50,019 nt of DNA from assembly GCA_044225365.1 (NCBI GenBank), contig JBGAIQ010000043.1:1-50019 (forward strand), given 5' to 3'. The DNA comes from Planctomycetota bacterium (GTDB lineage: Bacteria; Planctomycetota; B15-G4; JADJEK01). The notes under the pieces were generated by a model. The model worked only from the letters and a program-made list of their open reading frames with translations. It ran no database searches and was not told the DNA's origin. Each line of letters starts with the position of its first letter. Positions within the stretch are counted from its first letter, which is position 1. Below, piece after piece: positions 1,390-45,197 of the stretch. The position numbers and the translations under genes were made by a program.

Positions 1390-1494
1390 TTCGCGGCGAG
1401 ATCTTGCATTGTCTCGTCGCCCCGCGGCCACTCTCGCGGTGAAGAACCGGAGAGTACGGATCTTCCGAGAGTCGCGGGACGGCAGGACGATGGC

Positions 1495-4662: not shown

Positions 4663-4785
4663 CCCGCGGCGCGACGGGCGCCGGAGTCCTTCGTTCGAAT
4701 GACGCCGCCGAAACGCATTGGGCCTCCATCGTGCCTTCGGCTACACTCCGGTTCGTGCTGAGCGGCACGAGCCGAGGGTGAGGTC

Positions 4786-6435
4786 ATGTATCGATCGTCG
4801 ACGCAGGCGAGTGGGCGAAGTCTCAGGGTTTCTTGGCGTACAGGGTCGTTTGCCTTGGGCGTCGTACTCGCGTGCGCCGCTCCGGCGAGCGCGCAGTCCG
4901 TGATCTCGGCATTCGGCAATTTCCCGTACTCGAAGCTCGGCGACCGCATGGTGAAGGTCGCCGATGCGAATGGCGACGGCCTCGAGGACTTCGTGCTCTC
5001 GGGCGATCCGGGCTTCAGCGTCGGGCCACCCTACGCGACCGTGGTGCTCGTATCCGGTTCGAACGGCACGTTGCTCCAGACGCACAGCGATCCGCAGTTC
5101 GCGTCGGGATATGGCGCCTCGCTCACCGCGGCGGGCGATCTCGATCACGACGGCTTCGGCGACTTCGCGTTCGGCGCGCAGTCGAACAGCTCGGGCGCCG
5201 TCCCGCGCGTGCTCGCGTTCTCGGGCAAGACGGCAGGCTTGCTCTTCGAAGTGCAGAATCCGTTTGGGACGTCCTTCGGTGGATTCGGCCGGCCGCTCGC
5301 GGGGATCGGCGACGTGAATGGCGACGGAACGGACGATCTCGCGATCGGGAACCCGTTCTCGACCGTGTTCCCGCTGACGGTGGTCTCGGGTGTCGACGGC
5401 GCCACGATCTACTCGCTGATCAACGAGCACATCGGCGTCGGTCTCGCCGCGGTGGGCGACGTCGACCAAGATGGCGCAGTCGACTTTGCGATGCAGGTCG
5501 ACGACACATTGGATTCGATCGCGATCCACAGCGGCGCAACGGGAGTGCTTCTGCGATCCGTGCCGTCGCACTTCCCGGGCGCGGATTTCGGCAAGTCGAT
5601 CACCTACGCCGGCGACATCGACAACGACGGCGTCCCCGATCTCGCCGCGAGCGACCTGCTCTCCGTGGGATCCACCGCCGGACTCGGCGGCATCTACGTG
5701 TATGCGGGCGCCACGGGTGCGGAGATCGCACAAGTGCGCAATCCGTTCTACGGGAGCTTCTACGGCGGCGGCTTCGGCCTTGCGCTCGCCGGCGGGGAGG
5801 ACGTCAGCGGCGATGCGAAGCCCGATCTCGTCATCGGCACACCGCTCTCGCTCTTGCCCGTGATGGTCGCGGACGCCGGAACCGGGCAGTGGCGCGCGGC
5901 GCTTCCCACCGCGCCGAACGTCGTCCAGGGCCGCGCGGTCGCGATCGTCGCGGACCGCAACGGCGATGGTGTCGCCGAAATCGCCGACAGCGCGGGAACG
6001 ATCGCATTCGCTCAGGTCTCGAGCCTGCGGATCCGCGCAATCGACAAGACGAGCGTGGAATCAGTGGGGACGATCTGTCCCGGCTCCGGAGGCTTCACTC
6101 CGGTGCTGCAGGGTGGGATCACGCCCGCGGGTGCGAACGACTCGATCTCGATCCAGGTCTCGCAAGGCCTGGGCGGCGCACCCTGCGTGATCCTCGCGTC
6201 GCTTCCCGGGATCGTGCAGACGAGCACGTCGTGCGGCTTCCTGTTCATCTCACCGTGGATTTCGCCGCTCACGATCGTGACGACTCTTGGCGGAACCGGC
6301 CCGGGACAGGGAACGCTCGCTGCGGGCGGCAACGTGCTCGCGGGATTTGGCGCGATCACGATCCAAGCCGTCGTCGCCGATGCGGGCGCGCTGAAGAGCC
6401 TCGCTCTTTCGAACGCGCTCGTGATGAAGGGATGA
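4786..6435 (+). CDS. Secreted FG-GAP repeat protein
   Basis: Signal peptide ending APASA-Q. Seven DxxxDG-type motifs. Shared C-terminal domain ending LSNALVMKG. GAGG upstream of the ATG. Confidence 0.9.
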   Translation: MYRSSTQASGRSLRVSWRTGSFALGVVLACAAPASAQSVISAFGNFPYSKLGDRMVKVADANGDGLEDFVLSGDPGFSVGPPYATVVLVSGSNGTLLQTHSDPQFASGYGASLTAAGDLDHDGFGDFAFGAQSNSSGAVPRVLAFSGKTAGLLFEVQNPFGTSFGGFGRPLAGIGDVNGDGTDDLAIGNPFSTVFPLTVVSGVDGATIYSLINEHIGVGLAAVGDVDQDGAVDFAMQVDDTLDSIAIHSGATGVLLRSVPSHFPGADFGKSITYAGDIDNDGVPDLAASDLLSVGSTAGLGGIYVYAGATGAEIAQVRNPFYGSFYGGGFGLALAGGEDVSGDAKPDLVIGTPLSLLPVMVADAGTGQWRAALPTAPNVVQGRAVAIVADRNGDGVAEIADSAGTIAFAQVSSLRIRAIDKTSVESVGTICPGSGGFTPVLQGGITPAGANDSISIQVSQGLGGAPCVILASLPGIVQTSTSCGFLFISPWISPLTIVTTLGGTGPGQGTLAAGGNVLAGFGAITIQAVVADAGALKSLALSNALVMKG

Positions 6436-6483
6436 CCGCAGGACGACTCTGAACCGCTGCTTCGACGACAAGAGGAGGTTCTC

Positions 6484-8175
6484 GTGCAGATCGACTCGCA
6501 GATCGACTCATGGGAGCGACGAACGCGGCTGCATTGCCGGACGTTCGCCCCGGCATCGCGTCGTTCATCTCGCGCGATCGTGGTCGCGTTCTCGACGATC
6601 GTCGGCGCGGGCACCGCGGCCGGGCAGAGCGTGATCGCTTCGTTCGGGAACTATCCGTACGCATCGCTTGGCAATCAGATGATCTCCATCGCCGACGCGA
6701 ACGGCGACGGTGTCTCCGACTTCGTCCTGTCGAACGACAACGGCGGGCTGTCGGGATCGCCGGGCTCCACCGTCGCGCTCGTGTCGGGCGCGACCGGAGC
6801 GATGCTACATGCGCACAGCCATCCGCAAATCCCGAAGGGATTCGGCGTCAGCATCGCCGATGCCGGCGATCTCGACCACGACGGTCGCGAGGATTTCGCG
6901 TGCGGCGCGATCCAGCCGCTCGGGACCGCCGCCTCGCGCGTGCTCGTCTACTCGGGCGGCACGGGCACGACGATCCTGGAGGTGCTCAATCCCTACGCCC
7001 CGTCGCAGGTCGGCTTCGGCGCGTCGATCGCGGGACTCGGGGACGTCGACGGCGACGGAACTCCGGATCTCGCGGTCGCGAATCCGGACTCGGTCGTGTT
7101 CCCGCTCACGGTCGTCTCCGGCGTCGACGGGAGCACACGCTACGTGGTCCTGAGTGAGCGCATCGGATCGGGTCTCGCGACGATCGGTGACGTCGATCTC
7201 GACGGCACGCCTGATTTCACGATGCAGGTCGACGACGTGCTGGATTCGATCGAAGTGCGAAGCGGATCTTCCGGAGCGTTGCTCTCGACGGCGACTTCGC
7301 ACTTCAGTTCCGCGACGTTCGGCGCCGTCATCGTGGCCGCGGACGACGTGAATCAGGATGGCGTTCCCGACTTCGCCGCGAACGAACTCTACATCTCGCC
7401 CGGGACGTACGGCCTCGGCGGTGTCCTGGTCGAGTCCGGCGCCGACGGATCGCAGATCGCTGCCCTACGCAACCCGTTCTATCAGTCCTTGTGGGCACCC
7501 ATGTTCGCGATGCGACTCGCCGGCGGCGGCGGCGACGTCGACGGAGATGGGAGGCCGGATCTCCTGATCCTCTCGCCCGAGATCAACCTCCCGCTTCCCG
7601 TGTGGATCGCGGATGCGGCCACGGGTGCGACTCATGCAACGTTCACGGTCGGAAACGTCGGCACGCCGCACGCCCTGGCGATCGTTCCGGATCGCAACGG
7701 CGACGGCATCTCCGATATCGCTGACAGCCTGGGCCAACCTGCATCTTCTGCGACCGCCACGATCCATGTCCGGACGCTCGATGCTCACAGTGTCGGCACG
7801 GTGCCCTTGAACTGCATCGGATCGGGCGGATTCAAGCCGCTCCTCCAAGGCAGCGTCACGTCTACGGCCGGCGGCGAGACGGTATCGATCGCCGTCTCTT
7901 CAGGCCTGGGCGGCGCGCCGTGCGCGATCGTCGTATCGGTACCGGGACTCGTGCAGATCCCGAACAAGCAGTGCGAGCTGCTCTACGTGTCGCCGTCGAT
8001 TCCGCCGCACGTGACTCCGGCGACGCTCTCGGGCGCCGGGCCCGGACAAGGTGCGCTCGTCACGGCGGGAACCACTGCAGCCGGATTCGGTGGGATCTCC
8101 ATCCAGGTCGTCATCGCGGACCCGGGTACCGCCAACGGCTGGACGATGACGAATCCGATCTTCGTGAACGGCTGA
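6484..8175 (+). CDS. Secreted FG-GAP repeat protein, paralog of 4786-6435
   Basis: AGGAGG RBS before the GTG. Mature N-terminus QSVIASFGNYPY matches QSVISAFGNFPY of the upstream paralog. FG-GAP motifs and shared C-terminal domain. Confidence 0.88.
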   Translation: MQIDSQIDSWERRTRLHCRTFAPASRRSSRAIVVAFSTIVGAGTAAGQSVIASFGNYPYASLGNQMISIADANGDGVSDFVLSNDNGGLSGSPGSTVALVSGATGAMLHAHSHPQIPKGFGVSIADAGDLDHDGREDFACGAIQPLGTAASRVLVYSGGTGTTILEVLNPYAPSQVGFGASIAGLGDVDGDGTPDLAVANPDSVVFPLTVVSGVDGSTRYVVLSERIGSGLATIGDVDLDGTPDFTMQVDDVLDSIEVRSGSSGALLSTATSHFSSATFGAVIVAADDVNQDGVPDFAANELYISPGTYGLGGVLVESGADGSQIAALRNPFYQSLWAPMFAMRLAGGGGDVDGDGRPDLLILSPEINLPLPVWIADAATGATHATFTVGNVGTPHALAIVPDRNGDGISDIADSLGQPASSATATIHVRTLDAHSVGTVPLNCIGSGGFKPLLQGSVTSTAGGETVSIAVSSGLGGAPCAIVVSVPGLVQIPNKQCELLYVSPSIPPHVTPATLSGAGPGQGALVTAGTTAAGFGGISIQVVIADPGTANGWTMTNPIFVNG

Positions 8176-19898: not shown

Positions 19899-21635
19899 TC
19901 AGCTTCCGAGCTTCCAGTGCTGGCCCTGCGTCAGCGCCGTGTGATACGGACCGACCGCGCCCGGGTCGACGAATCCCGCCTGGAGGTAGAGGTCGAGTCC
20001 GCAGAGCGACTGCGTCGACGGCAATGGGAACGCGATGGTTTCGTTGCCCGCCGCATCGAGCGCGGGCACGAAGAAGATCGTCGAGGGGGCGACGAGGAGC
20101 GTGCCGTGATCGAACGGGATCGCGACGGGACTCCCCCCCGCGAAGAAGAACACCGTTCCTGCGTTGGGCAGGCCGCCCGTGATGGTGAGGTCGGTGGTCC
20201 CGCCGAGGACCGGCGGCTCGAGGGATGTGAGCACCGGCACTCCCACGGTTCCCGCCTTGCCGGCGCCGTAGGCCGTGGCCGACGCCGCGATGCAGCCGTG
20301 ATAGAGCTGGACCTGACCTTCGTCGCCGAGGAAGCCGCCCGGTCCGTCGAGGTGCGGCTCGCCGACCAGGATGTCGTCGACGAGATCGCCGTTCACGTCA
20401 CCGGCGCCGGCCACGGAGAATCCGAGCGTTCCGACCGACTGCGTTCCCGTGATCGTCCAGTACGGGGTCGAACCGAGACCGCCGGCGCCGTTGCGGAATG
20501 CGTGGGCGCGTCCCGCCGAGAGCGGCGAGTTTCCGTAGTAGGGATCGCCTGCGAGCACGTCGGGCCGCCCATCGCCGTCGATGTCCGCGTGACCCAGCGC
20601 ATACCCGAGGTTCTGGGATCCCGCACTCAGCCCGATCCAAGACGGATTCGCCGCATACCCGAGTGAGGTGCCCTGAAGCAGGAGGACACGGCCATGAACG
20701 GTGCCTTGAACCGCGAACTGCGCCTCCGAGACGAGCAGATCGTCTAAGCCGTCCCCGTCGAAATCGGCGGCGTCCATCGCGCGACCGAAGGCGACGCTTC
20801 CATTGCCGCCCTTGCTCCAGAGCGGCGTCGCGAGCGGTCCCGCGGGCGAGCCGGCGAAGAGGAAGACTCCGCCGTTGGCGTTCGCAGTGCCGGGATACAC
20901 GCTCGAACTCACGAGCACGTCGGAGAAGCCGTCGGCGTTGGGATCCCCCGCCGATCGCACGCCCGCGCCGAAGTGCGCGAGCAATTGACCGAAGCCGCCG
21001 TTCACCCAGGATGGAGAAGAGGGGAGTCCGAGGCTCGTTCCCAGGAAGACCATCGCGTAGCCTTCGCCGAGTTGGGACTGCGTGGCGCCGGGGAGTCCGA
21101 CGACGAGATCGAGGAATCCGTCGGCGTTCACGTCCCCCGCGCTCGAGACCGAGGCCCCGAGCTGTGCATTCGCGAGGTTGCTCTCGACGGACCATGCCGA
21201 CGTCGTCGCCAGGCCGGCAGGCGATCCGAGGAACACCTGGACGCGGCCCTCACTCGTCTGACCGTTCGAGTACGTGGTGGAACCGATGACGAGATCCGCG
21301 TAGCCGTCGCCGTTCAAGTCTCCCGCGCTGGCGACCGCCGCCCCCAACTGCTCGCTGAAAGTCGCGCCGTCGATGATCGAGGATGGGAGATTGGACAAGC
21401 CGCCCGGTGCGCCTCGATAGACGAAGACGCGGCCCACCCCCGTGTTGAACGAGTGCCCCGGGGCGCTGACGGCGATGTCGCCGAAGCCGTCGCCGTCGAC
21501 GTCTCCCGCGCTCGTGAGCGCGTATCCGAGCCACGCACTGTGCTCCCCACCGTTCTGCTTCCAGTTCGGCGTGGTTCCGATCGGGTAGGCGAGAACGGAC
21601 AACAGTATGGGACTTGCCAGAGTTGCGAGAAACAT
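19899..21635 (-). CDS. Secreted FG-GAP repeat protein (integrin-alpha-like)
   Basis: Seven (S)AGD[V/L]N.DG..D repeats with GR V.V(F/Y).G. C-terminal domain YGAGKAG...LQAGFVDPG...LTQG..WKLGS. GGAGG upstream of the chosen start. Confidence 0.9.
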   Translation of the reverse strand: MFLATLASPILLSVLAYPIGTTPNWKQNGGEHSAWLGYALTSAGDVDGDGFGDIAVSAPGHSFNTGVGRVFVYRGAPGGLSNLPSSIIDGATFSEQLGAAVASAGDLNGDGYADLVIGSTTYSNGQTSEGRVQVFLGSPAGLATTSAWSVESNLANAQLGASVSSAGDVNADGFLDLVVGLPGATQSQLGEGYAMVFLGTSLGLPSSPSWVNGGFGQLLAHFGAGVRSAGDPNADGFSDVLVSSSVYPGTANANGGVFLFAGSPAGPLATPLWSKGGNGSVAFGRAMDAADFDGDGLDDLLVSEAQFAVQGTVHGRVLLLQGTSLGYAANPSWIGLSAGSQNLGYALGHADIDGDGRPDVLAGDPYYGNSPLSAGRAHAFRNGAGGLGSTPYWTITGTQSVGTLGFSVAGAGDVNGDLVDDILVGEPHLDGPGGFLGDEGQVQLYHGCIAASATAYGAGKAGTVGVPVLTSLEPPVLGGTTDLTITGGLPNAGTVFFFAGGSPVAIPFDHGTLLVAPSTIFFVPALDAAGNETIAFPLPSTQSLCGLDLYLQAGFVDPGAVGPYHTALTQGQHWKLGS

Positions 21636-21786
21636 GCGCTTCCTCCATGTTCTCAAGGCCTTGATCGGCCGGGATCCGGTCCTCCGCTCGCGTTCATTAT
21701 GTTCGAACGGGTACGAATTGCCAGCGCGCAACTCGAGGCCGGGTGGAGTCCCGTGTCACGCTGGCCGATTGGGATCGGGTCGAGAT

Positions 21787-28974: not shown

Positions 28975-29094
28975 TTCTTGGAGTATCCTCGTCCGGATCG
29001 CGAGGGTCGCGCGATAGATGCCGGGGTAGCTCTTTCGATCCGTGGACCCGCCGATCGTCACCACCAAGCTTGCTCGAATGAGGGAAACCAAGGC

Positions 29095-30825
29095 ATGAAA
29101 ACGGTCTTCGCCCGCAATCCCAGCGTTCGCATCCTCCATTCGACGACCTTGTGGTTCACCGCACTCTGCGGAGCCGCGAGTTCCCAAGTCCCGCTCATGA
29201 ACCTGGTGAGCTCAACGGGCGATGACGATTTCGGGGCCGATGTCACCCTCGTCGGTGACGTCGACGGCGACGGCGTCCCGGACTTCGCGATCGGCGTACC
29301 GCGAACGGTGGGCCCCACGGGCGCAACGGCGGGAGGTCCTGGCGCAGTGCGGGTCATCTCCGGCGCCACCGGTTCCCTGCTCTTCGTCGGGAATGGCCTC
29401 CACGCGAACGATTTCTTCGGCAGCGCTGTGGCGGGTGGGGGAGATGTCGATGCCGACGGATTTCCGGATCTAGTCGCGGGCGGATTCCTGATGACGAACG
29501 GGCCGTCCGCCGCGGGCGGCATCCGCGTCTTCTCCGTCGCGAACGGCACCGTACTCTTCACTCGGTTCGGCGATTCGGCGAACGATTGGCTCGGTTTCGC
29601 GGTCGCGGATGCGGGTGATGTCGACTCGGATGGTCACGCCGACGTTGCCTGCGGCGCGCCGTACGACGACAACGCGACGACCGACTCCGGCAGCGTGCGG
29701 GTCTACTCCGGCTCGAACGGCAGCGTGCTGTACACGCTGAACGGCTCGTTCCCGCAGGGAGGATTCGGGCGCGCATTGGATGGAATCGGCGATGCGACCG
29801 GCGACGGGGTGGACGATCTCGCGGTCGGAGTGCCCTATGCCACCGTGCTGAAACCCCAGTCCGGACAACTGCGGATCTACTCGGGCGCCTCCGGCGGCCA
29901 ACACCTCGCACTCTCCGGCGTCGCGAACCTCGAATCGTTCGGCTCGAGCGTGTCCCGGGCCGGCGACCTCGATGGCGACGGGCGCGGTGAAGTGCTCGTC
30001 GGCACTTCGGCCAACGCCGTACGCATCCACTCCGGCAGCGACGGCGCGCAGATCATGGCGTTCTCCGCCGGCACGCCCGGGGATCTCGCCGGTACCGTGG
30101 CGGCGATGGCGCACGACTTCAACGGCGACGGCGTGGCGGACGTGATCGTCGGAGCGCCTCGCTCCAACCTGAACGGCACGGAATCGGGCGCGGCCTTCGT
30201 CGTCTCGGGACAGAACGGATCCGTACTGGAGACTCTTCGCGGCACCGGCGCGTTCGCTCACTTCGGGTCGAGCGTGGCGGGGATCGAAGACGTCGATTCG
30301 GACGGCCGCGCGGACGTGCTCGTCGGTGCGCCGGATGGAGGGATCGCGGGATTCGGTTTCGGCGGGGTCGCGCAGGTCTTCGTGGGCCTGCCGGCGGGAT
30401 GCGTGAACGGACCGGGAAGCGTGGACCTCAACGTGGACGGAGTGCCCGATCCCTGCCAGTTCTGCCAATCGAATCTTGCGGCCGGTGGGCCGGGAAACCT
30501 GCATCTGCAGATCTGCGGCGATTCCCTCACCTTCACCGGCAGCGTCGCGACGCTCGGCTTGTCGAAGGGCACGCCGGGAGGTCCGTTGTTCCTCCTGGCC
30601 TCGACGAGCAGTCATCCGACGCCGCTCCTCGGTGGCACCGTCTGGCCGTTCCCCGTGATCGCGATGATCACGGGCAACTTCGACGCGGAGGGCAAGTGGC
30701 GGCTCAAGATCCCAGGGGGACCGGCGCCCACCGTGAACGTGTACCTGCAGGCGATCGCGCCCTGGCCGGGCGGAACGTCGCCCTACGAGATCTCGGGTCC
30801 GACCCTGCTCAAGCTCGGCTACTGA
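29095..30825 (+). CDS. Secreted FG-GAP repeat protein
   Basis: FG..V...GDVDGDG.PD and GAP repeats. C-terminal domain ...VYLQAI...EISGPTLLKLGY. Confidence 0.88.
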   Translation: MKTVFARNPSVRILHSTTLWFTALCGAASSQVPLMNLVSSTGDDDFGADVTLVGDVDGDGVPDFAIGVPRTVGPTGATAGGPGAVRVISGATGSLLFVGNGLHANDFFGSAVAGGGDVDADGFPDLVAGGFLMTNGPSAAGGIRVFSVANGTVLFTRFGDSANDWLGFAVADAGDVDSDGHADVACGAPYDDNATTDSGSVRVYSGSNGSVLYTLNGSFPQGGFGRALDGIGDATGDGVDDLAVGVPYATVLKPQSGQLRIYSGASGGQHLALSGVANLESFGSSVSRAGDLDGDGRGEVLVGTSANAVRIHSGSDGAQIMAFSAGTPGDLAGTVAAMAHDFNGDGVADVIVGAPRSNLNGTESGAAFVVSGQNGSVLETLRGTGAFAHFGSSVAGIEDVDSDGRADVLVGAPDGGIAGFGFGGVAQVFVGLPAGCVNGPGSVDLNVDGVPDPCQFCQSNLAAGGPGNLHLQICGDSLTFTGSVATLGLSKGTPGGPLFLLASTSSHPTPLLGGTVWPFPVIAMITGNFDAEGKWRLKIPGGPAPTVNVYLQAIAPWPGGTSPYEISGPTLLKLGY

Positions 30826-35719: not shown

Positions 35720-35818
35720 TGAGCCCCCGCTCGCTCGGCCTCCGGTCGGCGTAGGGTTTTCCTCGGGGCACGGCGGCCTTTCTTGTCTGCGGAATCGATT
35801 GAATTGGAATGCCGGCCC

Positions 35819-35900
35819 GTAGGGGCGCACGGCTTGTGCGCCCTCTTTTCTTCGGCACCGTCCGCAATGGAACGGCGGGGACACCGCCGTGTGCCCCCGC
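35819..35900. repeat. GTAG-type REP-like palindrome plus degenerate inverted copy (REPIN-like); first hairpin may act as terminator
   Basis: GTAG-GGGCGCAC-GGCTT-GTGCGCCC followed by TCTTTTCTTC. The reverse strand at 35877-35900 reads GCGGGGGCACACGGCGGTGTCCCC. Confidence 0.5.
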
Positions 35901-36071
35901 GTGGATGGCCGCGCGCGGCGCATCCCTCGACGAATACACCGGCATGGCCGCAACGCGGAACGCCGCGAATTCGTGCAACGCTCGTTCGCCCCCGTGCGAC
36001 AACCGTGAAGGAGCCAAACGGTCCTGCCCGTTCGCAGGGTGAATTCGAGAATCCGTCCGGAGTCGTGTGTC

Positions 36072-37259
36072 ATGCGTATCGATCGTCAGTCCAACCTGGA
36101 GTCGTTTCGTTCTTCTTTCACCCCGATGAGCCGTGGTCCGACCGTGCTCGACCTGAAGGGCGCCACGGGCGTTCAGCAGTTGTTCGGGCCGAATCTCGCG
36201 GGAAACACCCGCGCGACGTTCGCGCCAAACATCACGGGAACCGATCCCGCGACGTGGACCTACTTCGATCAGAACCAGGTCGCTGGCGACCCGAACGCCT
36301 GCGGCACGACGAGCCTGTCGATGATCCTTGCGACTCTCGGCATCATTCCGCCGACGCTCGAAGCGGCCAAGGGAGTCGACCAGGCGATCCGGCGCTGGGG
36401 CGGATTCTCGGCTCCCGAAGATCTCGAGAAGTTCGCCGAGAGCAAGGGCCTCTTCTCCGAGGGCTACAACGACCAGAGCTTCTCCGATCTCAAGGGTCAC
36501 CTCGCGGCCGGCCGTTCGGTCATGGCGATGATCGATGGCGGTAGCAACCCGCATTGGGTCGCGGTGCAGAACGTCTCCGAGCAGAACGGTCAGGAGTTCG
36601 TGACGTATGCCGATCCCGGCGGCGGCGTCACCAAGACGGTGACGCGCGAGCAGTTCGAGAAGATGTGGGACAAGCCGATGAAAGGTTCGAACGGCTTCCT
36701 GAACGATCTCGCGGGCTTCCACAACTTCCTCCAGGTGTTCGACAAGAAGCCGGTTCCGGCGTCGAACGACTTCTCGATCGCGTTCACCCAGGCCGCGGCC
36801 GACGGCGTGTCCGACATGGGCAATGCGTTGTCCGACCTGAAGAGCGTCTTCACGAAGGGCAATATCGGCGGTCTCGTCACCGGCCTCACCGGCCTCACCG
36901 GCGGCCTCGTCTCCACCCTCAGCGCGATCCCGGGCGGCGTCGGCCGCATCGTGGAGATGGGCGGCGACAAGGTCCTCGACTGGGCGAAGTCCAAGTGGAA
37001 CGAGGGCGGAGTCGGCAACAAGATCCTCGGCGGGCTCGGATTCGTCGGCGGCGGCATTCTGAAGGGCCTGGGCTGGGGCGTGAAGCAGATCGGCAACGTG
37101 GTGGCCAAGGTCGGCCATGCGATCGGCAGCACGATCACCAAGATCGGCGAGAAGGTCGTCGAAGGCGTCAAGAAGGTCGGCGAGAAGGTCGTCGACGGCG
37201 TCAAGAAGGTCGGCGAAGCCATCGGCCACGGAATCAAGAAGATCTTTTCCGGCTGGTGA
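36072..37259 (+). CDS. Peptidase C39-like domain fused to Gly-rich amphipathic repeat tail
   Basis: Q...NACGTTSLSMIL (Cys), PHWVAV (His), YADPGGG (Asp), EQFEKMW. Tail of 11-aa repeats ending KKIFSGW. GGAG RBS. Confidence 0.8.
   Translation: MRIDRQSNLESFRSSFTPMSRGPTVLDLKGATGVQQLFGPNLAGNTRATFAPNITGTDPATWTYFDQNQVAGDPNACGTTSLSMILATLGIIPPTLEAAKGVDQAIRRWGGFSAPEDLEKFAESKGLFSEGYNDQSFSDLKGHLAAGRSVMAMIDGGSNPHWVAVQNVSEQNGQEFVTYADPGGGVTKTVTREQFEKMWDKPMKGSNGFLNDLAGFHNFLQVFDKKPVPASNDFSIAFTQAAADGVSDMGNALSDLKSVFTKGNIGGLVTGLTGLTGGLVSTLSAIPGGVGRIVEMGGDKVLDWAKSKWNEGGVGNKILGGLGFVGGGILKGLGWGVKQIGNVVAKVGHAIGSTITKIGEKVVEGVKKVGEKVVDGVKKVGEAIGHGIKKIFSGW
37140..37238 (+). repeat. 33-bp in-frame tandem repeat (two near-identical units and one diverged unit)
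   Basis: aagatcggcgagaaggtcgtcgaaggcgtcaag / aaggtcggcgagaaggtcgtcgacggcgtcaag / aaggtcggcgaagccatcggccacggaatcaag. Confidence 0.9.
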
Positions 37260-37359
37260 GCGCAACGCGGCGTGAATCGCGCCGAGAACTGGGCCGGCCC
37301 GACGGGAATTCCGATCGGGTCGGCCCTCGTTCGTTGATCTGAAGACCCGGAGAAGCGCG

Positions 37360-38610
37360 ATGTCGACCGAAGTCCTCGAACCCACCGCCCAGATCGATGC
37401 GATTCCCGTCGCGCCGCGCCTCCACATCGTGAACCTCACGATCACGGGGAAGTGCAACCTCGACTGTCCCTGCTGTTATCAGAAGCGTCGCACCGACGAC
37501 ATGGACACGGCGCCGATCCTGAAGATCATCGACGAGATCGCCGCGCTCGGTACGGAGATCCTGATGATGCCGGGCGGCGAGCCGCTCCTGCGCAAGGACC
37601 TCGACGCGGTGATCGAGCACGCGAGCCGGCGCGGCCTCAAGATCTACCTCGCGAGCAACGGCACACTCGTCACCGACGAGCGCGCCGCGCGACTCAAGGA
37701 ACTCGGGCTCACGGGCGTGTGCGTCGGCTTCGAAGTCTTCGATCCGCGTTCGCTCGAGGAAGTCGATCGCGCGGGACTCGGCAAGACGATGGCCGGGATC
37801 CAGAGCTTCGCGAAGGCGGGGCTCGAGACGTTCGCGAACCTCATCGTGACGCGCACCAACCTGAAACACCTGCCGCGCACCGTGAAGTTCCTCCGCTCGC
37901 TCGGCGTGAAGCGGATGACGATCCTTCGGCCGAAGCCCGCGCAGACCGGGAAGTGGTTCGAGGAAGCGCGCCTCGGCAAGAAGGAGATGTTCCGTCTGCA
38001 GATCCTGAAGGCGAAGCTCGAGGCAGCCTACGATCTCGAGTTCATCAACGTGGATTGCGCGCTCGGTCCCCTGCTCGGTGGGCTGCCCAAGAACCTGCTC
38101 GAGAGCGCGGGAATCGAGAGCTGCCTCGCGGGCCGGAAATACATCTCGGTCGACAGCAACGGCGACGTGTATCCATGCGCGTACTTGCGGTATCCCGAGT
38201 TCAAGGCCGGCAACGCGAAGCGGGAATCGCTGGAGCAGATCGTCGCGACGTCGAAGGTGTTCGAGCCGTTCCGCAAGCCCAAGCTCGAGGGCAACTGCGG
38301 ATCGTGTCCGATGCAGCAGCATTGCGGCGGCTGTCGCGCGATGGCGTGGCACGACCACAAGAACATCATGGCGCAGGACGACGACTGCCACTTCGGCGGC
38401 GCGTCGACCTCGCGCAAGGTGTACATGGGCGTCGCGTTCTGGAGTGCGATGATCGTTCGCTTCGCCCGCGCGCGATTCGGTCTGCGCTCGAAGGGCTCGA
38501 AGGCGTATGCCGAGGAGATCCTCGCGCGCACCCCGAAGCGATCGATCTTCCGGAGGAAGAGGAAGAGTGAGCGTCTCGAGCTGTGCGGCACGCCGGGTCA
38601 CGCGGAGTGA
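37360..38610 (+). CDS. Radical SAM protein with SPASM domain
   Basis: CNLDCPCC (CxxxCxxC), GGEPLLR, SNGTL. SPASM: CLAG...ISVDSNGDVYPC...CGSCPMQQHCGGCRA...DDDC. Confidence 0.93.
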   Translation: MSTEVLEPTAQIDAIPVAPRLHIVNLTITGKCNLDCPCCYQKRRTDDMDTAPILKIIDEIAALGTEILMMPGGEPLLRKDLDAVIEHASRRGLKIYLASNGTLVTDERAARLKELGLTGVCVGFEVFDPRSLEEVDRAGLGKTMAGIQSFAKAGLETFANLIVTRTNLKHLPRTVKFLRSLGVKRMTILRPKPAQTGKWFEEARLGKKEMFRLQILKAKLEAAYDLEFINVDCALGPLLGGLPKNLLESAGIESCLAGRKYISVDSNGDVYPCAYLRYPEFKAGNAKRESLEQIVATSKVFEPFRKPKLEGNCGSCPMQQHCGGCRAMAWHDHKNIMAQDDDCHFGGASTSRKVYMGVAFWSAMIVRFARARFGLRSKGSKAYAEEILARTPKRSIFRRKRKSERLELCGTPGHAE

Positions 38611-38688
38611 CGCCGGAGCGATGGCCCGGCACGCTATGCTGACCGGGCGGAGCGTTTCTCGACCCCGCGAATTCCCGGAGCGAGTTCC

Positions 38689-39870
38689 TTGACGATCCTG
38701 CTCGCCTCGATCTTGCGCGCTTCGAAGGGCGCGCTGTTCCTCATCGCCGGCTTGGTGCTTGCGGGCTGCACTCAACCCGCCAGCATCGTGGGGATCGATG
38801 GTGCCACCGGGGCGGAGAAGTGGCGGCTCCAGGACGGGACCTCGGTCTTCTCGTGCGTGGGCGATCTCGTGCTCGTCGTGCGAGACGAGCACCTCGCCGC
38901 GCTCGATGGACGAACGGGCCAGCCGCTCTGGAAGTCGGATCTCCAGCCCGCGCTCGATCGCCGACCTTTGGACGTCGGCGGCGCCATCGTCGTCGTGAGT
39001 GCGAACCAGGATCTCTGTCTCGTCGACGCGAAGGACGGTGCTGTGCGCTGGCGCGTTCCCTTCGGACGCGGCGGACTGGTGCTCGGCAGCAGTGACGACG
39101 GTTCGATCGCCGCGCTCGGAACGGCGCCCGAGTCGGATGGCGCCCTCGAATTGCGGCAGATCGATCGCCTCGGAGCCGCTCACGGAAGACTGCGCATCGA
39201 AGGTCTCGAGCTCGGGGCCGTGGCGCGCCTCACGGTGGCCGGAGCGATCGCCACGATCGCATCGCACGACGGCGATCTCGTCGTCGTCGATTTCGAAGCA
39301 GGGACGGTGTACTCGTCCGGAGAGATCCATCCCGCGATCGCTCCTTGCATCGCCGGCTCGCGAGTGGTGGCGGTCCGGAAGGACGGGTCGCTCGTGATGA
39401 TCGACGCGAAGACGGGCGAAGAGGGTTGGCGCATCGGGGCGTTGCCGACGGCAGCGACGCTCGGCGTCGCGAACGGGATCATCTGGTTGGGGGGAAGCCA
39501 CGGCGCGCTCGTGGGCGTGGAGATCGATAGTGGCGAGATCCGTTTCAGCATCGCCGATTCCGGGACCGACGGCCGCATCGTCCGGGATTCGCGTCTCCTC
39601 GGCGATCCCACGCCCGCCCTGATCTTGCAGCAGGGAACCGGCCTCGCGATCGTCGACGCCACGAAGGGGAAAGTGGCCACGCGTTTCGAGATCCGCGATC
39701 TCGTCGCGACGTTCGCGCGCATCGGTCCGCGCGCCTTCACCCGCACCGACGATGGCCGGGTGGCGGGATTCGATCTCGAGAATCGAAGGAAGGCGTTCGA
39801 GTCGAATCCCGGGTCCCGTGCGGAGACCGCGATCGTGGTCGTGACGCGCGACGGAACAGCGGTCCTGTGA
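38689..39870 (+). CDS. PQQ-like (BamB-type) beta-propeller lipoprotein
   Basis: LAGC lipobox. Repeats IDGATGAEKW, ALDGRTGQPLW, VDAKDGAVRW, IDAKTGEEGW. Confidence 0.8.
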   Translation: MTILLASILRASKGALFLIAGLVLAGCTQPASIVGIDGATGAEKWRLQDGTSVFSCVGDLVLVVRDEHLAALDGRTGQPLWKSDLQPALDRRPLDVGGAIVVVSANQDLCLVDAKDGAVRWRVPFGRGGLVLGSSDDGSIAALGTAPESDGALELRQIDRLGAAHGRLRIEGLELGAVARLTVAGAIATIASHDGDLVVVDFEAGTVYSSGEIHPAIAPCIAGSRVVAVRKDGSLVMIDAKTGEEGWRIGALPTAATLGVANGIIWLGGSHGALVGVEIDSGEIRFSIADSGTDGRIVRDSRLLGDPTPALILQQGTGLAIVDATKGKVATRFEIRDLVATFARIGPRAFTRTDDGRVAGFDLENRRKAFESNPGSRAETAIVVVTRDGTAVL

Positions 39871-39882
39871 GGGCGAAAATGC

Positions 39883-39920
39883 GAACGGGTCCCGGTCACG
39901 AGCGCGACCGGGACCCGTTC
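39883..39920. terminator. Perfect 15-bp inverted repeat between convergent genes (probable bidirectional terminator)
   Basis: gaacgggtcccggtc-acgagcgc-gaccgggacccgttc. Confidence 0.75.
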
Positions 39921-39937
39921 CATGCGATCGAAGTTCG

Positions 39938-42229
39938 TCAGTTACCGACTTTGATACGCAGCGCGTTGCTGAACGCGAACTGACCGTTGTAGCCGCCGGC
40001 CGTGTCGAAGATGAAGTACTGGAAGTACGCCGAGCTGCCGGCGAAGCCCGACAATTCCGTCGGCACGGGGAGGGTCACCGTCGCCAAGCCGGCTCCGTTC
40101 GTCACCGTGTTGATCAGCACGAGCGGCGGCAGGAGATAGAGACTGCAGCTCGCGAGCGGCGTCGTGAACTGGTTGAGGGACAGGCCGAGCAGTGCGGGCG
40201 CATTGCTGCGCGCGTTGCTCACCGTCACGCCGAACGACGGATTGCCGAAGAAGGGCGAGCCGACGGCCGAGATCACGGGCACTCCGCTGGTGCCGGCGCA
40301 GCCCACGCCGAACGGCTGCACGAGCGACGGCGTGACCGCGATCATGATCGTGACGTCGTTCGACGCCTTGTTGGCAACGACGATGTCGAGCGTCTTGTCG
40401 TCATCGAGATGCGCGATGGCGAGCGCCGCGGGAACCGAGTGCGCGAGCAGCGTGTTCTGCGCGGCGAACGCGTTCGAGCCCGCGTTGTAGCCCTCGTAGT
40501 GCGTGAGATTCTCCGAACCGAAGTTCACGGCGACCACGTCCTGCTTCGCGATGAAGCCCGGGAGCGAATCGTCGCGCAGATCGGCGCATTCGAGATCGAT
40601 CGGCGACGAGCCGCCGGTGAACGTGCCGCCCGCGGCGAACGCGCCCGAGTTCCACGACCCGGCGGTGAGGCCGGTGTTCTTGAACACGACGACGTTGCCG
40701 GGGAGGATCGTCGGGAACGACTCCGCCGTCACCGCGAGATCCTTGTCGCCGTCGCCGTCGAAGTCGCCGCTGCAGATGCCCTTGGGATTCTGCGAGACGC
40801 TGAGCGTGATCGGAGCGGCGAACGCGCCCGCGCCGAGGTTTTCGTAGAGTAGGACGTTGGCGGAGAGCGTGGGGGAGAACGCCGAGCCCGACATGGTGAC
40901 GATGAGGTCGCCGTCGAGGTCGCCGTCGAGATCGCTGATCGCGACGCGCTGCGGACGCTTGAAGCCGCCCGCGGGCGGAGTGAGAGCGACGAGCGCGCCG
41001 CCGTTGAGGCTCACCATCACCGAGCCGGTGCCCGCGATGAGCAGGTCGCCTTGCATCGCGACCGCGATGTCGTCGGTGCCCGTGCCATCGAGGTTGCCGA
41101 CGTCGATGCCGACGGGCTCGGTCGCGGGAAGCGTGGAGAGGGAAGCCGTGACCGCGAACGTACCCGCGGGGTTGTTGCGCACGATGCGCACGGCGTCGTT
41201 GCCGGTGGCGGCTACGGCGAGATCACGCCCGCCGCCCACGACGAGATCGCCCGCCGCGAGGGCGGAGGGAGCATCGCCGGAAGTGAGGCCGATCGTGGTC
41301 GACGTCGGGAACGTACCGGTGCCGCTGTTGAATCGGACGGTGACCGAGTTCGAGCCGTTGTCCGCGGTCGCGATATCGGCCTTCGAGTCGCCCGAGAGAT
41401 CGAGAGCGATGACGTCACACGGCGTCGTTCCGACCGCGACGTGGGTCCGCGAGTACGGAAGATCGAAGTCGTACGCCAGGTTCATCCCGGCGCCGAAGTT
41501 GTGAGAGACGCGAAAATCGTCGACGTAGCCGACCTGGTTCAGGTTGCCGGCGCCGACGCCCATCTCGATGAGCACGACCTGCGCGTCCTGGAAGTCGGAC
41601 GACATCACCGCGCGCCATTGCGCGAGCGTCTTCAGCGGAGGGCCGCCCGCGCCGCTCGGCTGGCCGAAGCCGCCGGTCCACCAGAACAGTCCGTTGTTCT
41701 CGTCGATCGTCACGGTCTTCCAGGTGTCGAGCGAAGGCTGTGAACTGATGGGCGTGGCCGGGGTCGAGCCCGGTCCGTTCCACGACGCTTCGTAGACGAA
41801 CGTGCCGAAGCAGTCGGAGGCGCTCAGCGGATCGTCGCAGAGCGGATTGAAGACCGCGATCTTCAGCGACGGCGCGGGCGTGAGGTCCTGACCCGGATTG
41901 GTCGCCTTGTGCCACGAGTACTGGATGTTCAGCGACGGGAAGATGTTCTGCGGCTGACCGTAGGCGAACGGGAGTCCGATGTTCGCGCGATCGCCCGGAT
42001 TCGACGTCGTCGTGAGACGCGCCGCGCCGCGCGGCAGCGGTTGATTGTTCTGCAGATTGCCGCCCGCGGTGGAGAGATCGACGACCGAAACGGTGCCGGC
42101 GCCGGTGACGTTGCTTGCGTACCAGACGCCGGGAGTGGGAGTCGGCGAGAAGGGCGCGATCGAGGTGACGACGTTCTGCGCCGCGGCAGGCGCCGCGAGC
42201 AGAGCGAGTGCGATGAGGGTTGTCTTCAT
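39938..42229 (-). CDS. Secreted VCBS/FG-GAP protein with N-terminal beta-sandwich domain
   Basis: Signal MKTTLIALALLAAPAAA-Q, D[L/F]DGDGD.DL repeats, C-terminal FGVGCAG...FQYFIFD...FSNALRIKVGN. Confidence 0.88.
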   Translation of the reverse strand: MKTTLIALALLAAPAAAQNVVTSIAPFSPTPTPGVWYASNVTGAGTVSVVDLSTAGGNLQNNQPLPRGAARLTTTSNPGDRANIGLPFAYGQPQNIFPSLNIQYSWHKATNPGQDLTPAPSLKIAVFNPLCDDPLSASDCFGTFVYEASWNGPGSTPATPISSQPSLDTWKTVTIDENNGLFWWTGGFGQPSGAGGPPLKTLAQWRAVMSSDFQDAQVVLIEMGVGAGNLNQVGYVDDFRVSHNFGAGMNLAYDFDLPYSRTHVAVGTTPCDVIALDLSGDSKADIATADNGSNSVTVRFNSGTGTFPTSTTIGLTSGDAPSALAAGDLVVGGGRDLAVAATGNDAVRIVRNNPAGTFAVTASLSTLPATEPVGIDVGNLDGTGTDDIAVAMQGDLLIAGTGSVMVSLNGGALVALTPPAGGFKRPQRVAISDLDGDLDGDLIVTMSGSAFSPTLSANVLLYENLGAGAFAAPITLSVSQNPKGICSGDFDGDGDKDLAVTAESFPTILPGNVVVFKNTGLTAGSWNSGAFAAGGTFTGGSSPIDLECADLRDDSLPGFIAKQDVVAVNFGSENLTHYEGYNAGSNAFAAQNTLLAHSVPAALAIAHLDDDKTLDIVVANKASNDVTIMIAVTPSLVQPFGVGCAGTSGVPVISAVGSPFFGNPSFGVTVSNARSNAPALLGLSLNQFTTPLASCSLYLLPPLVLINTVTNGAGLATVTLPVPTELSGFAGSSAYFQYFIFDTAGGYNGQFAFSNALRIKVGN

Positions 42230-42282
42230 GGTTGAGTTTCCAATTCCCGAAATGGCGGAGACAAGGGGGACGAGAGAGGACG

Positions 42283-42329
42283 ATCGAGACGACGCCGCGG
42301 GCGCATGCGCTCACGGCGTCGATCTCGAT
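42283..42329. other. Long imperfect palindrome in the intergenic spacer between the tandem VCBS genes
   Basis: atcgagacgacgccgcgggcgca|tgcgctcacggcgtcgatctcgat. Confidence 0.7.
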
Positions 42330-42378
42330 GGAGTCGAATCACGAACTCAGGTGGAGGATCGTGTCGGTCGCGACGCGA

Positions 42379-44772
42379 TCAGTTGCCGACCTTGATGCGT
42401 AGGGCATTGCTGAACGCGAATTGCCCGGTGTACGCGCCGTTCGGATCGAAGATGAAGTACTGGAAGAACGCCGACGATCCGGCGAAGCCCGAGAACGGGC
42501 CCGGGATCGGCAGAGTCACCGTGGCCTCGCCGAGACCGTTCGTGACGGTGTTCAGCAGCACGATGGGCGGCAGGAGGTAGAGGTTGCACGAACCGAGCGG
42601 CGTCGTGAATTGATTCAACGACAGACCGAGCAAGGTCGGTGCGAACACTCGCGCATTGCTGACCTTCACGCCGAACGCCGGATTGCCGAACGACGGCAGT
42701 CCGATCGCGGAGATGACCGGGATGCCGGTCGTACCCGGGCAACCCGAACCGAACGTCTGAGCGAGCGACGGCGTGATCGAGAGCAGGACGGTCACGTCGT
42801 TCGACGCCTTGTTGGCGACGACGAGGTCGAGCGTCTTGTCGTCGTCGAAGTGCGCGATCGCGACCGCCGCCGGCACCTGGTGCGCGAGGACGGTGGCCTG
42901 TGCCGCGAACGAACTCGAGCCGCCGTTGTAGCCGTCGTAGCGCGTCAAGTTCTCCGAGCCGAAGTTGACCGCGACGATGTCCTGCGCGGAGATGAAGCCG
43001 GGGAGCGAGTCGTCGCGCAGATCGGCGCATTCGAGATCGATCGGCGACGAACCGCCCGTGAAGGTGCCGCCCGCGGCGAACGCGCTCGAGTTCCACGACC
43101 CGGCGGTGAGGCCGGTGTTCTTGAACACGACGACATTGCCGGGGAGGATCGTCGGGAACGACTCGGCGGTCACCGCGAGATCGTTGTCGCCATCGCCGTC
43201 GAAGTCGCCGCTGCAGATGCCCTTGGGATTCTGCGAGACGCTGAGGGTGATCGGAGCGGCGAACGCGCCCGCGCCGAGGTTCTCGTAGAGCAGGACGTTC
43301 GTGGTGAGCGTGGGGGAGAACGCCGAGCCCGACATCGTGACGATGAGGTCGCCGTCGCCGTCGCCGTCGAGGTCGCTGATCGCGACGCGCTGCGGCCGCT
43401 TGAAGCCGCCCGCGGGCGGAGTGAGCGCGACGAGCGCGCCGCCGTTGAGGCTCACCATCACCGAGCCGGTGCCCGCGATGAGCAGGTCGCCCTGCATCGC
43501 GACCGCGATGTCGTCGGTGCCCGTGCCATCGAGGTTGCCGACGTCGATGCCGACCGGCTCGGTCGCGGGAAGCGTCGAGAGGGAAGCGGTGACCGCGAAC
43601 GTGCCTGCGGGGTTATTGCGCACGATCCGCACGACGTCGTTGCCCGTCGCCGCGACGGCGAGATCACGCCCGCCGCCCACGACGAGATCGCCCGCCGCGA
43701 GGGCGGAGGGTGCATCGCCGGAAGTGAGGCCGATCGTGGTGGACGTCGGGAACGTGCCGGTGCCGCTGTTGAAGCGGACGGTCACCGAGTTCGAGCCGCT
43801 GTCCGCAGTCGCGATGTCGGCTTTCGCGTCGCCCGAAAGTTCTTCGGCGATCACGTCGCACGGCGTCGTTCCGACGGCGAGATTCGTCGCCGTGAATTCC
43901 GGCGGCGGTCCGAACGTCGTCGTCGATCCCACGCGATAGAAGCTCGTCACGAGTTGGTTGACGTAGACGTTGCCGTTCGCATTGCCCGAACCGATTCCGA
44001 ACTGGATGCTCGTGATGTGCGCGCCGGGAGCGGTGATGAGCGCGTACTCCATCGCCAGCGTCTTGGCGCCCGAGACCACGGCGCCCGAGGTCGACATCGC
44101 GCTCAAGGTCATCGGATTGCCGATCGTGTTGGCGCCGATCGTGCGATCGACGAGCCACCAGGTACCGGAGGTGAACGTCGAGGACTCGACGTGCCAGTTG
44201 CCGTCGGACGTGGTTCCGTTCAGGTTGCCGGGCTCGTAGATGAGCAGCTTGTCCCACGCGTTCTCACCGGTGCGAGCCGAGATCGGCGTCGAACCGTAGT
44301 CCGCGGTCTTGATGCCGATCTTCAGCGCCGCCGTGATCGACGACGGACCGTTTCCCATCCACGAGTAGTTGATGCTGAAACCGGGCGCGACGACGCTGCC
44401 GGGAGCATGGCCGATACCGTCGTCCTTCCGATGGCTGATCGTGCTCTTTCCCGACCCGCTGTTGCCGATGCGCAGCCGCACGGCGCTCGGGAACGTGCCG
44501 AGCGGGACGGTGCCGGGCGCGATGAGGAAGCTGATCTGACTCTGGATGTCGGCGTTGTGGAGCACGTTGCCCGAGCCCGCTTCCGGGAAGTCGGTCAGCG
44601 TGGGGCTCTTCAAGTTCGTGCCGGCCACCTGCGTGCCGAAGCCATCGGCGCGAGTGTCGTCGGAGTACCAACCATTCTGCGAGAGGCTGCTCGTGTTGAC
44701 CGACGCCGCGAGGGCGTAGGAACCAAGGGCGACCCCGACGAGGGGAATCCCGACGAGACGGAGAATCTTCAT
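42379..44772 (-). CDS. Secreted VCBS/FG-GAP protein, paralog of 39938-42229
   Basis: Signal MKILRLVGIPLVGVALGSYALA with GGAAGG RBS. C-terminal ~500 aa very similar to the neighbour. Confidence 0.88.
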   Translation of the reverse strand: MKILRLVGIPLVGVALGSYALAASVNTSSLSQNGWYSDDTRADGFGTQVAGTNLKSPTLTDFPEAGSGNVLHNADIQSQISFLIAPGTVPLGTFPSAVRLRIGNSGSGKSTISHRKDDGIGHAPGSVVAPGFSINYSWMGNGPSSITAALKIGIKTADYGSTPISARTGENAWDKLLIYEPGNLNGTTSDGNWHVESSTFTSGTWWLVDRTIGANTIGNPMTLSAMSTSGAVVSGAKTLAMEYALITAPGAHITSIQFGIGSGNANGNVYVNQLVTSFYRVGSTTTFGPPPEFTATNLAVGTTPCDVIAEELSGDAKADIATADSGSNSVTVRFNSGTGTFPTSTTIGLTSGDAPSALAAGDLVVGGGRDLAVAATGNDVVRIVRNNPAGTFAVTASLSTLPATEPVGIDVGNLDGTGTDDIAVAMQGDLLIAGTGSVMVSLNGGALVALTPPAGGFKRPQRVAISDLDGDGDGDLIVTMSGSAFSPTLTTNVLLYENLGAGAFAAPITLSVSQNPKGICSGDFDGDGDNDLAVTAESFPTILPGNVVVFKNTGLTAGSWNSSAFAAGGTFTGGSSPIDLECADLRDDSLPGFISAQDIVAVNFGSENLTRYDGYNGGSSSFAAQATVLAHQVPAAVAIAHFDDDKTLDLVVANKASNDVTVLLSITPSLAQTFGSGCPGTTGIPVISAIGLPSFGNPAFGVKVSNARVFAPTLLGLSLNQFTTPLGSCNLYLLPPIVLLNTVTNGLGEATVTLPIPGPFSGFAGSSAFFQYFIFDPNGAYTGQFAFSNALRIKVGN

Positions 44773-45197
44773 ATGCGTAGTACCTTCCACAGTTGCTCGG
44801 ACCGCGTGAAAACGCGGGTTCCGACCCTTTTACGTGAACGCGCGAACGCCCCGGCGCCCGCGAGTCGCAGCCGCGATCGTGATTCGAAGGCTTCGGAATG
44901 GAATGCCGCCGCAGCGAAATCGCTCAGCCATCGGGAGGGATCGTCCACCGATTCCCAATCCCCAATCCTCATCCACTCCCCGGTCCCTCGCCGGCTGCTG
45001 CATCACATCGGAGGATTCCGATGCCTTTCCACGACCGAGGCGGCGTCTTCTCCGCCCGGCTCATCACGTGCAGCGACCATCGCGATCGAGGCTCGAACGG
45101 GGAGGAGGATAACAGGACGTAGGATCGCTGAGAAGTCCACGCGTCGAAATGCAGGCCTGCTTCCAGGCGCGGGCGCGGGCGCGGGCGCGAGGCGGGA

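Follow-up and report, generated by a model that had tools for sequence, protein, structure and literature searches.

The question raised by the locus described here is why a Planctomycetota bacterium should encode, side by side, a stand-alone C39-like cysteine peptidase with a long glycine-rich tail, a radical S-adenosylmethionine (SAM) enzyme with a SPASM domain and a beta-propeller lipoprotein. The window, i.e., the whole stretch of DNA that was analysed, is the entire 50,019-bp contig JBGAIQ010000043.1 (our contig C28), one of the 103 contigs that make up a 6.5-Mb genome (GenBank assembly GCA_044225365.1). The three genes, which we refer to as g1, g2 and g3, are co-oriented on the forward strand, each with a third-codon-position GC content of 0.81-0.88. 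An initial annotation, made from the sequence alone, had taken the trio for a candidate system of the RiPP (ribosomally synthesized, post-translationally modified peptide) or bacteriocin kind, in which the protease carries its own substrate in cis. Its account of the layout, three co-oriented genes preceded by a gap of ~350 bp and followed by a strong hairpin, agrees with what we find (a 352-bp gap at 35720-36071 and a downstream hairpin with a z-score of -4.7). The answer that we favour, tentatively and at a probability of roughly 0.4, is that the radical SAM enzyme matures the full-length g1 protein, which would probably be membrane-active and possibly self-processing. Comparisons of sequence and gene order support a functional link between the two. 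The genes and the two parts of g1 are placed as follows:

36072-37259, forward strand: g1, 395 amino acids (aa) from an ATG start; a C39/C70-like cysteine peptidase without a leader, extended by a Gly-rich C-terminal domain
36219-36755, forward strand: g1 peptidase domain, about residues 50-228, with Q67, C77, H161 and D181-P182
36756-37256, forward strand: g1 tail, residues 229-395
37360-38610, forward strand: g2, 416 aa; a radical SAM enzyme that has a complete 7-Cys SPASM domain, is extended at the C-terminus by a basic segment, and belongs to an orphan group that we call clade A
38689-39870, forward strand: g3, 393 aa; a BamB-like PQQ_2 beta-propeller lipoprotein

The first part of g1 is a papain-like C39-type fold with a Gln oxyanion residue and an intact Cys/His/Asp set, as the initial annotation had supposed for the catalytic residues. 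It matches Peptidase_C39_2 (PF13529) at 30 bits over residues 67-182 (cutoff 24) and falls below both the strict C39 model PF03412 (18.5 bits, cutoff 22) and the C70/AvrRpt2 model (16.8 bits, cutoff 19); an NCBIfam scan of the protein gave no match. An alignment of 39 sequences shows no variation at C77 and H161 and almost none at D181, Q67 is nearly invariant among the 15 closer ones, the H-W-V-x-V and D-P motifs are present, and C77 is the only cysteine of the protein. In an AlphaFold model built with the 39-sequence alignment the peptidase domain (residues 50-230) has a predicted local distance difference test (pLDDT) score above 90, and the N-terminus (1-47) is disordered. A fold search with this domain returned the peptidases of PCAT1 (8vp3; Z 16.0, root-mean-square deviation 2.1 over 134 residues) and LahT150 (6mpz; Z 16.0), followed by the toxin domain StbD-CT (Z 13.2), and profile searches of the PDB with g1 matched 3erv (7e-7), 9l5u (2.2e-5), 8ssm (2.7e-5) and ComA (2e-4). 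Translation of g1 probably begins at the ATG at 36072, because a GGAG lies 8-9 nt upstream and because similarity to the orthologous locus L031, on a metagenome contig, extends ~90 bp into the 5' leader.

The second part of g1 is a tail of ~165-171 aa, the last 171 residues containing 22% Gly as compared to 11% in the head. The Gly-Gly sites that had been listed for it are all present (residues 266, 277, 288, 297, 312, 320 and 326/327), and the tail is indeed free of cysteine. In the 15 closer sequences G245, G278, G288, G291, G298, G334, G352 and G359 are invariant, and G277, W309, G312 and G313 nearly so. The full-length model predicts five helices here, at pLDDT values of 65-85 that drop past residue ~360. 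The conserved Gly-Gly pairs sit within these predicted helices, and the boundary between peptidase and tail carries an [LV]-P motif instead of a conserved Gly-Gly. Two moderately hydrophobic stretches (265-286 and 318-336) resemble Gly zippers, and the protein ends in Lys-rich, strongly amphipathic 11-residue repeats that close with KKIFSGW. Charge varies within the family, from Lys-rich tails of the window type to Asp-rich, acidic ones at loci L007, L037 and L008; the C-terminus is nearly always rich in aromatic residues (FSGW, LFGF, FKSLF). Searched exhaustively against 1.84 billion representatives, the tail alone gave 40 HMMER hits, and in most of these it forms the C-terminal part of a protein of ~350-450 aa. 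A stand-alone tail protein of 30-216 aa did not turn up; the short HMMER hits mostly lack a start codon and resemble fragments at contig edges. In two proteins, P0094 (424 aa) and P0117 (287 aa), a tail ending in KKIFSGW or KKFFSGW follows N-terminal regions that are not C39-like, and that of P0094 has Cys/His motifs that look papain-like by eye and unlike C39. The fixed glycine positions, the all-helical prediction, the presence behind another papain-like domain and the lack of a free tail protein together argue that the tail is a modular conserved domain and not a variable core. Modelled alone it reached a pLDDT of 55.6, too low for a fold search; with the tail of the full-length model the colicin E2 coiled coil and CHMP1B both scored Z 9.1, which for helical proteins is below a meaningful level, and a protein atlas search with the tail gave no usable match. 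The tail probably binds to or inserts into membranes.

The second gene, g2, carries the CX3CX2C motif of the radical SAM family (C32, C36, C39) and seven SPASM cysteines (C255, C273, C313, C316, C322, C325 and C343), in line with the initial annotation; the alignment shows little or no variation at six of these, C325 not being among those listed. Its Pfam matches are Radical_SAM (PF04055; 80 bits) and SPASM (PF13186; 46 bits). The radical SAM core starts near residue 25, and neither Pfam nor NCBIfam reports a PqqD or RiPP recognition element (RRE) match in the protein. Assignments to NirJ/AhbD, to the mycofactocin enzyme MftC and to PqqE were considered and rejected, all scores being far under the NCBIfam cutoffs (NirJ2 165 of 500, AhbD 154 of 500, MftC 120 of 265, PqqE 99 of 381); g2 also scored 61.6 bits against the anaerobic sulfatase-maturating enzyme model anSME (cutoff 349) and 88.5 bits against TIGR04133 (cutoff 425). 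A PADLOC scan left g1 and g3 unmatched and matched g2 to the generic radical SAM core of pVip alone (62 bits, residues 24-197). A complex prediction of g2 with full-length g1 scored 0.00, a value that counts neither for nor against binding.

The evidence that carries the link between g1 and g2 is their co-occurrence. Clade A has six members at 56-100% identity, the next relatives being at most 33% identical. In L031 the order g1-g2-g3 is kept, with identities to the window of 79% for g1, 86% for g2 and 48% for g3. In three lineages beyond L031 the clusters of the radical SAM enzyme and of the g1 homolog lie on contigs of equal sizes (36540, 24095, 8932, 4544, 8392 and 5016 nt), some of which are so short that the two genes must be neighbours. 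Altogether a peptidase-tail gene is found on the same contig in five of the five clade A lineages that could be judged. A second group of SPASM enzymes, clade B (51-61% identity internally, 26-28% to g2), has a distant peptidase-tail gene within 2 kb at L007, L033 and L047, the arrangement differing in each, so that three of the four known clade B loci have such a gene alongside. In a quick tree the two clades are separate and well supported, and they are not sisters. Chance hardly accounts for the repeated pairing, in rearranged order, of two orphan SPASM clades with a single rare family of proteins, and this pairing argues that the radical SAM enzyme acts on or with the peptidase-tail protein. 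The neighbourhood comparison that had been proposed as a check came out in the same direction: the close homologs of g2 lie with peptidase-tail genes and not in heme or mycofactocin loci, and no heme-pathway genes were seen among the 30 open reading frames (ORFs) of the window scanned with Pfam.

Some other radical SAM genes were encountered along the way. In a Cyanobacteriota metagenome-assembled genome (MAG) a B12-binding (class B) enzyme lies directly upstream of a C39 homolog (L019:4187-6951, also L056), which makes a third radical SAM type beside the g1-type peptidase family and is a further point in favour of the link. In L033 (9209-11431) as in L065 (4934-7020) a UDP-glucose pyrophosphorylase-like gene stands immediately before the clade B gene, so that this pair is conserved. 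The sister clade of g2 (30-33% identical; L165, L166, L168, L170 and L171, at ~4370-6300 in L168), from MAGs labelled Blastocatellia, Verrucomicrobia, Acidobacteria, Heliobacteriaceae and Nitrososphaerota, has an N-terminal extension of ~110 aa that is RRE-like by eye and has no Pfam match. Ahead of the enzyme, in five of six loci examined, stands a conserved protein of 194-198 aa that matches no Pfam or NCBIfam family and carries the pattern M.I..R.QFIADHSSTNYLF...; the sister clade thus looks like another case of a radical SAM enzyme paired with a protein-sized partner.

Anaerobic sulfatase maturases and QhpD are SPASM radical SAM enzymes that bring about maturation at the level of a protein. 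Most likely, g2 would do likewise, installing, without an RRE, a post-translational modification on full-length g1 in the cytoplasm; its action would be protein-level maturation and not the modification of a short precursor. CrpC, a SPASM enzyme reported to act on the whole protein CrpA (PMC13692751), is a further precedent. The g1-family members that are linked to a radical SAM gene have no signal peptides, which fits an oxygen-sensitive cytoplasmic enzyme acting before any export. By analogy with StbD-CT, whose C39 domain is reported in a preprint to cut itself in cis after Gly157-Gly158 (bioRxiv 10.64898/2026.05.07.723447), the g1 peptidase may cut itself or a target after Gly-Gly. The exported lipoprotein encoded by g3, which travels with the clade A enzyme, is a candidate partner, receptor or means of protection.

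Several observations weigh against maturation of g1 by g2. The adjacency of the two genes in three of the clade A lineages is read from equal contig sizes, not from sequences, and shared ancestry may account for part of the co-occurrence within clade A. In genome G042 the g1 homolog (L004, 63% identical) has no radical SAM gene within 6 kb; the genome's clade A enzyme (65% identical) shares an 80.6-kb contig with this homolog, at a distance of 65 kb, and is 2 bp away from a PQQ_2 lipoprotein gene whose product is 28% identical to g3 over most of its length. The tightest clade A pair is thus that of enzyme and lipoprotein, and this layout leaves a three-part system and a radical SAM-lipoprotein pair with g1 as a separate neighbour standing as rivals. 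Among 185,579 species genomes clade B was found only in that of L007 and in L065, and L065 has no peptidase-tail gene in the 6 kb upstream or the 1.7 kb downstream of the enzyme. The initial annotation had asked whether C39-tail genes co-occur with the radical SAM enzyme, and in most cases they do not: among the 14 tail-bearing loci with usable flanks only four have one (the window, L031, L007 and L033), the others being L004, L005, L006, L008, L012, L029, L037, L041, L043 and a second locus of the source genome on contig C93. Of five tail-bearing genomes (G041-G045; G041 and G045 searched for both clades, G043 and G044 for clade B only), four gave neither, with best other matches of 90-120 bits, and G042 has the clade A ortholog. 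Genomes carry two to three peptidase-tail paralogs but one such enzyme, and no motif or residue was found that marks the tails linked to it, the differences tracking two tail subtypes. Finally, thioether chemistry on the tail is excluded because C77, in the peptidase domain, is the one cysteine of g1. Since most family members do without the enzyme, any modification would be an accessory to the tail and not its reason to exist.

The alternative that survives best is that the functional pair consists of the radical SAM enzyme and the propeller lipoprotein, the enzyme either maturing the lipoprotein or making its ligand, and that the peptidase-tail gene is a frequent but separate neighbour. We regard this as possible, if somewhat doubtful. 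Enzyme and lipoprotein genes adjoin in all three sequenced clade A loci (with a 78-bp gap in the window, in L031, and with the 2-bp gap in G042, where the peptidase-tail gene is far removed), and NCBIfam offers a precedent in TIGR04133, a radical SAM family found beside a lipoprotein, though g2 scores far below its cutoff. Set against this, the clade B loci lack a g3-type lipoprotein yet have peptidase-tail genes, and every clade A lineage that could be judged holds a peptidase-tail gene as well. The lipoprotein also diverges far faster than the enzyme (48% and 28% identity in L031 and G042, as compared to 86% and 65%) and has no conserved cysteine, which would be unusual for a substrate modified at a fixed site.

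The scheme of the initial annotation, in which the C39 domain serves as a leader and cuts its own tail after Gly-Gly, the radical SAM enzyme cross-links or epimerises that tail and the lipoprotein provides immunity or export, is weaker, and we consider it unlikely. Its premise on the protease has stood: the fold is nearest to that of the double-glycine peptidases of peptidase-containing ATP-binding cassette (ABC) transporters (PCATs), with Z 16, the catalytic set is intact, and StbD-CT offers a documented case of a C39 domain cutting in cis at such a site. The invariance of G278 and near-invariance of G277, G312 and G313, the cationic, amphipathic tail of the window type with its Gly-zipper-like stretches, the hairpin region that L031 keeps between g1 and g2, such hairpins often separating a structural gene from the genes of its enzymes, and the RRE-like look of the extension in the sister clade could all be read in its favour. 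The premise on the tail has fared less well. A RiPP core would be expected to vary, and the tail is conserved across phyla as a helical domain; its conserved Gly-Gly pairs lie inside predicted helices with [LV]-P at the boundary; acidic tails occur at L007, L037 and L008; a stand-alone tail protein of 30-216 aa did not turn up, and the short HMMER hits look like contig-edge fragments; and most family members have no radical SAM enzyme. As the initial annotation had already remarked, the usual companions of a RiPP are also not seen: we find no conserved small ORF in the gaps of the locus (including the leader shared with L031), no RRE or PqqD match in g2, though a divergent RRE may lie in another protein, and no ABC exporter among the Pfam-scanned ORFs. 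A classical precursor, with a short leader and a variable core, is thus not seen here; what the locus does share with RiPP systems is a modifying enzyme that co-occurs with its putative substrate gene (5/5 clade A lineages, 3/4 clade B loci). An elaborated form of the scheme, a long shot in our estimation, would make the product a new ribosomal one: the self-processing C39 "leader" would present a tail modified by the enzyme, e.g., by an aromatic/Lys cross-link near DWAKSKW or KKIFSGW, which would then be cut at Gly-Gly to release a membrane-active agent of 9-13 kDa, the two radical SAM clades having been recruited independently to the same scaffold.

It is also improbable that g1 is a C39-like antibacterial toxin in the manner of StbD-CT or 9l5u, with the tail for membrane entry, a neighbouring gene for protection and the radical SAM enzyme incidental, since the matches to 9l5u and to the CdiA-CT toxin 8ssm, the several diversified paralogs per genome, the Sec or lipoprotein signals of P0008-P0011 and P0113 and the predatory or social habits of hosts such as Myxococcota, Bdellovibrionales and Sericytochromatia are met by an N-terminal peptidase in the reverse of the polymorphic toxin order, no Pfam delivery domain in g1, diverse neighbours with no recurring small immunity gene, and a repeated linkage to radical SAM genes that a toxin would leave unexplained.

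Returning to the preferred view, maturation of g1 by g2, the setting of the genes shows that they entered the genome together. In three family-level relatives the backbone reads accA, an extracytoplasmic function (ECF) sigma factor, an anti-sigma factor, an HtrA-like gene, (TPR), SRPBCC, RlmN, ClpX, ClpP and tig, with SRPBCC and RlmN joined directly at a spacing of 74-239 bp. In the window these two are 9.5 kb apart, and the interval holds the trio together with a pair of near-identical FG-GAP genes. Searches of 40 relatives of the same family and order found none of the three genes (E <= 1e-30 for g2, E <= 1e-10 for g3). L031 has the backbone of the window and keeps the trio without the FG-GAP genes, with a 632-aa CarboxypepD_reg gene ahead of g1; this leaves g1-g2-g3 as the core of the island, an accessory module gained as one unit. 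The FG-GAP genes (39938-44790, reverse strand; 763 and 803 aa) are in tandem and identical over long stretches, pointing to a recent duplication; five further FG-GAP propeller genes occur at 1-8175, 19902-21755 and 28975-30822, for a total of seven such ORFs in the window. The window also encodes a 1090-aa fusion of an ECF sigma factor with CarboxypepD_reg (1390-4659), and the clade A gene of G042 is flanked by two similar sigma-CarboxypepD_reg fusions (L163:3337-9420).

Three regions of predicted RNA structure bear on how the module may be expressed:

35822-35844, forward strand: terminator-like hairpin within the upstream gap and 3' of the SRPBCC gene, a 10-bp stem with seven GC pairs followed by the T-tract CTTTTCTT
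37268-37326, forward strand: two hairpins in the gap between g1 and g2, kept in L031, where a U-rich run follows
about 39879-39923, strand not assigned: strong GC hairpin with a 15-bp GC stem, between the convergent g3 and FG-GAP genes

The first of these marks g1 as the first gene of a new transcription unit. The double hairpin between g1 and g2 has z-scores of -4.3 in the window and -4.25 in L031 and was equalled by none of 200 shuffled sequences in either case; it is possibly an attenuator or partial terminator, and its conservation, together with the U-rich run in L031, suggests that g1 is expressed more highly than g2 or separately from it. The hairpin downstream of g3 was likewise matched by none of 200 shuffles. 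An Rfam search of the window gave no match.

The lipoprotein assignment of g3 was borne out by a PQQ_2 match of 74 bits and an N-terminal lipobox, LVLAGC. It scores 60.9 bits against the BamB model TIGR03300 (cutoff 285), and its absence from all 40 relatives argues that it is not the housekeeping BamB.

The g1 family is an undescribed, small, multi-phylum family of stand-alone peptidases with a C39 fold and a conserved helical tail. A word-based search of 5.8 billion proteins yielded 16 relatives of g1, the only named close homolog being from a Planctomycetota MAG, and contig scans placed members in MAGs labelled Planctomycetota, Actinomycetes, Myxococcaceae, Deltaproteobacteria and Sericytochromatia. 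Two peptidase-tail paralogs are present in G042 and three in G047. ATP-grasp ligases are another class of peptide-modifying enzymes, and at the second copy of the source genome (contig C93, 32% identical to g1 and with the same KKIFSGW end) the peptidase-tail gene is followed by two paralogous ATP-grasp genes and no radical SAM gene (C93:51275-55181; L002/L003), with a 555-aa Ig-like/CarboxypepD_reg protein encoded upstream on the opposite strand. From locus to locus the neighbours are highly diverse. Propellers of four families, Sortilin/BNR, NHL, FG-GAP and PQQ_2, are found 3' of peptidase-tail genes in different phyla (L004:7533-10118, L029:6773-8143, L006:7290-9914 and g3 of the window), and CarboxypepD_reg-domain proteins flank such genes in C93, L031, L033 and L007; the recurrence of both could be due to chance in genomes that are rich in propellers, and we give that of the propellers no weight as evidence, since FG-GAP genes by themselves account for seven ORFs of the window.

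Should the radical SAM enzyme act on the peptidase-tail protein, SPASM enzymology would gain a class of substrates that are protein-sized and cysteine-free, and there would be a new, phylum-spanning C39-type peptidase family with a membrane domain built in. Standard RiPP mining programs, which look for short precursors and RRE domains, would overlook a system of this kind, and its core of two genes is small and readily testable. If the link is merely positional, an unannotated peptidase family and an orphan radical SAM-lipoprotein pair remain.

Comparison with known systems helps to place the module. NirJ2 and AhbD, the best NCBIfam matches of g2, align with it over the full length of their models (residues 23-345) but, as noted, at scores far under cutoff. 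The C39 domains of PCAT/AMS (ABC transporter maturation and secretion) proteins such as PCAT1, LahT150 and ComA share the fold and catalytic set of g1 but are fused to an ABC transporter, whereas g1 is a stand-alone ORF of 395 aa with a C-terminal helical domain that they lack. StbD-CT, a C39-family contact-dependent inhibition toxin of Citrobacter rodentium (PDB 8ssk/8ssm), likewise combines a C39-type peptidase and a membrane-related domain in one chain; its peptidase, however, is C-terminal behind a YajC-dependent entry domain, lies inside CdiA and has a dedicated immunity gene, none of which applies to g1, and unlike g1 it has no radical SAM neighbour described. The papain-like toxin 9l5u, a type VI secretion system protease, resembles g1 at the level of the profile match given above. 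BamB shares with g3 the PQQ_2 propeller and lipobox. A parallel in gene content is that of CrpC and CrpA, where, as with g2 and g1, a SPASM radical SAM gene stands beside the gene of a full-size protein, in this case one that the enzyme modifies; CrpC, which carries an RRE, forms thioethers on a protein rich in cysteine, in contrast to g2, which shows no RRE, and to g1 with its single cysteine. The C39-type peptidase, the SPASM radical SAM enzyme and the propeller lipoprotein are thus of known kinds. Literature searches, supplements aside, found no published description of a C39 peptidase-tail protein arranged with a radical SAM enzyme, and what is new is the tail domain, the two radical SAM clades and their pairing with it.

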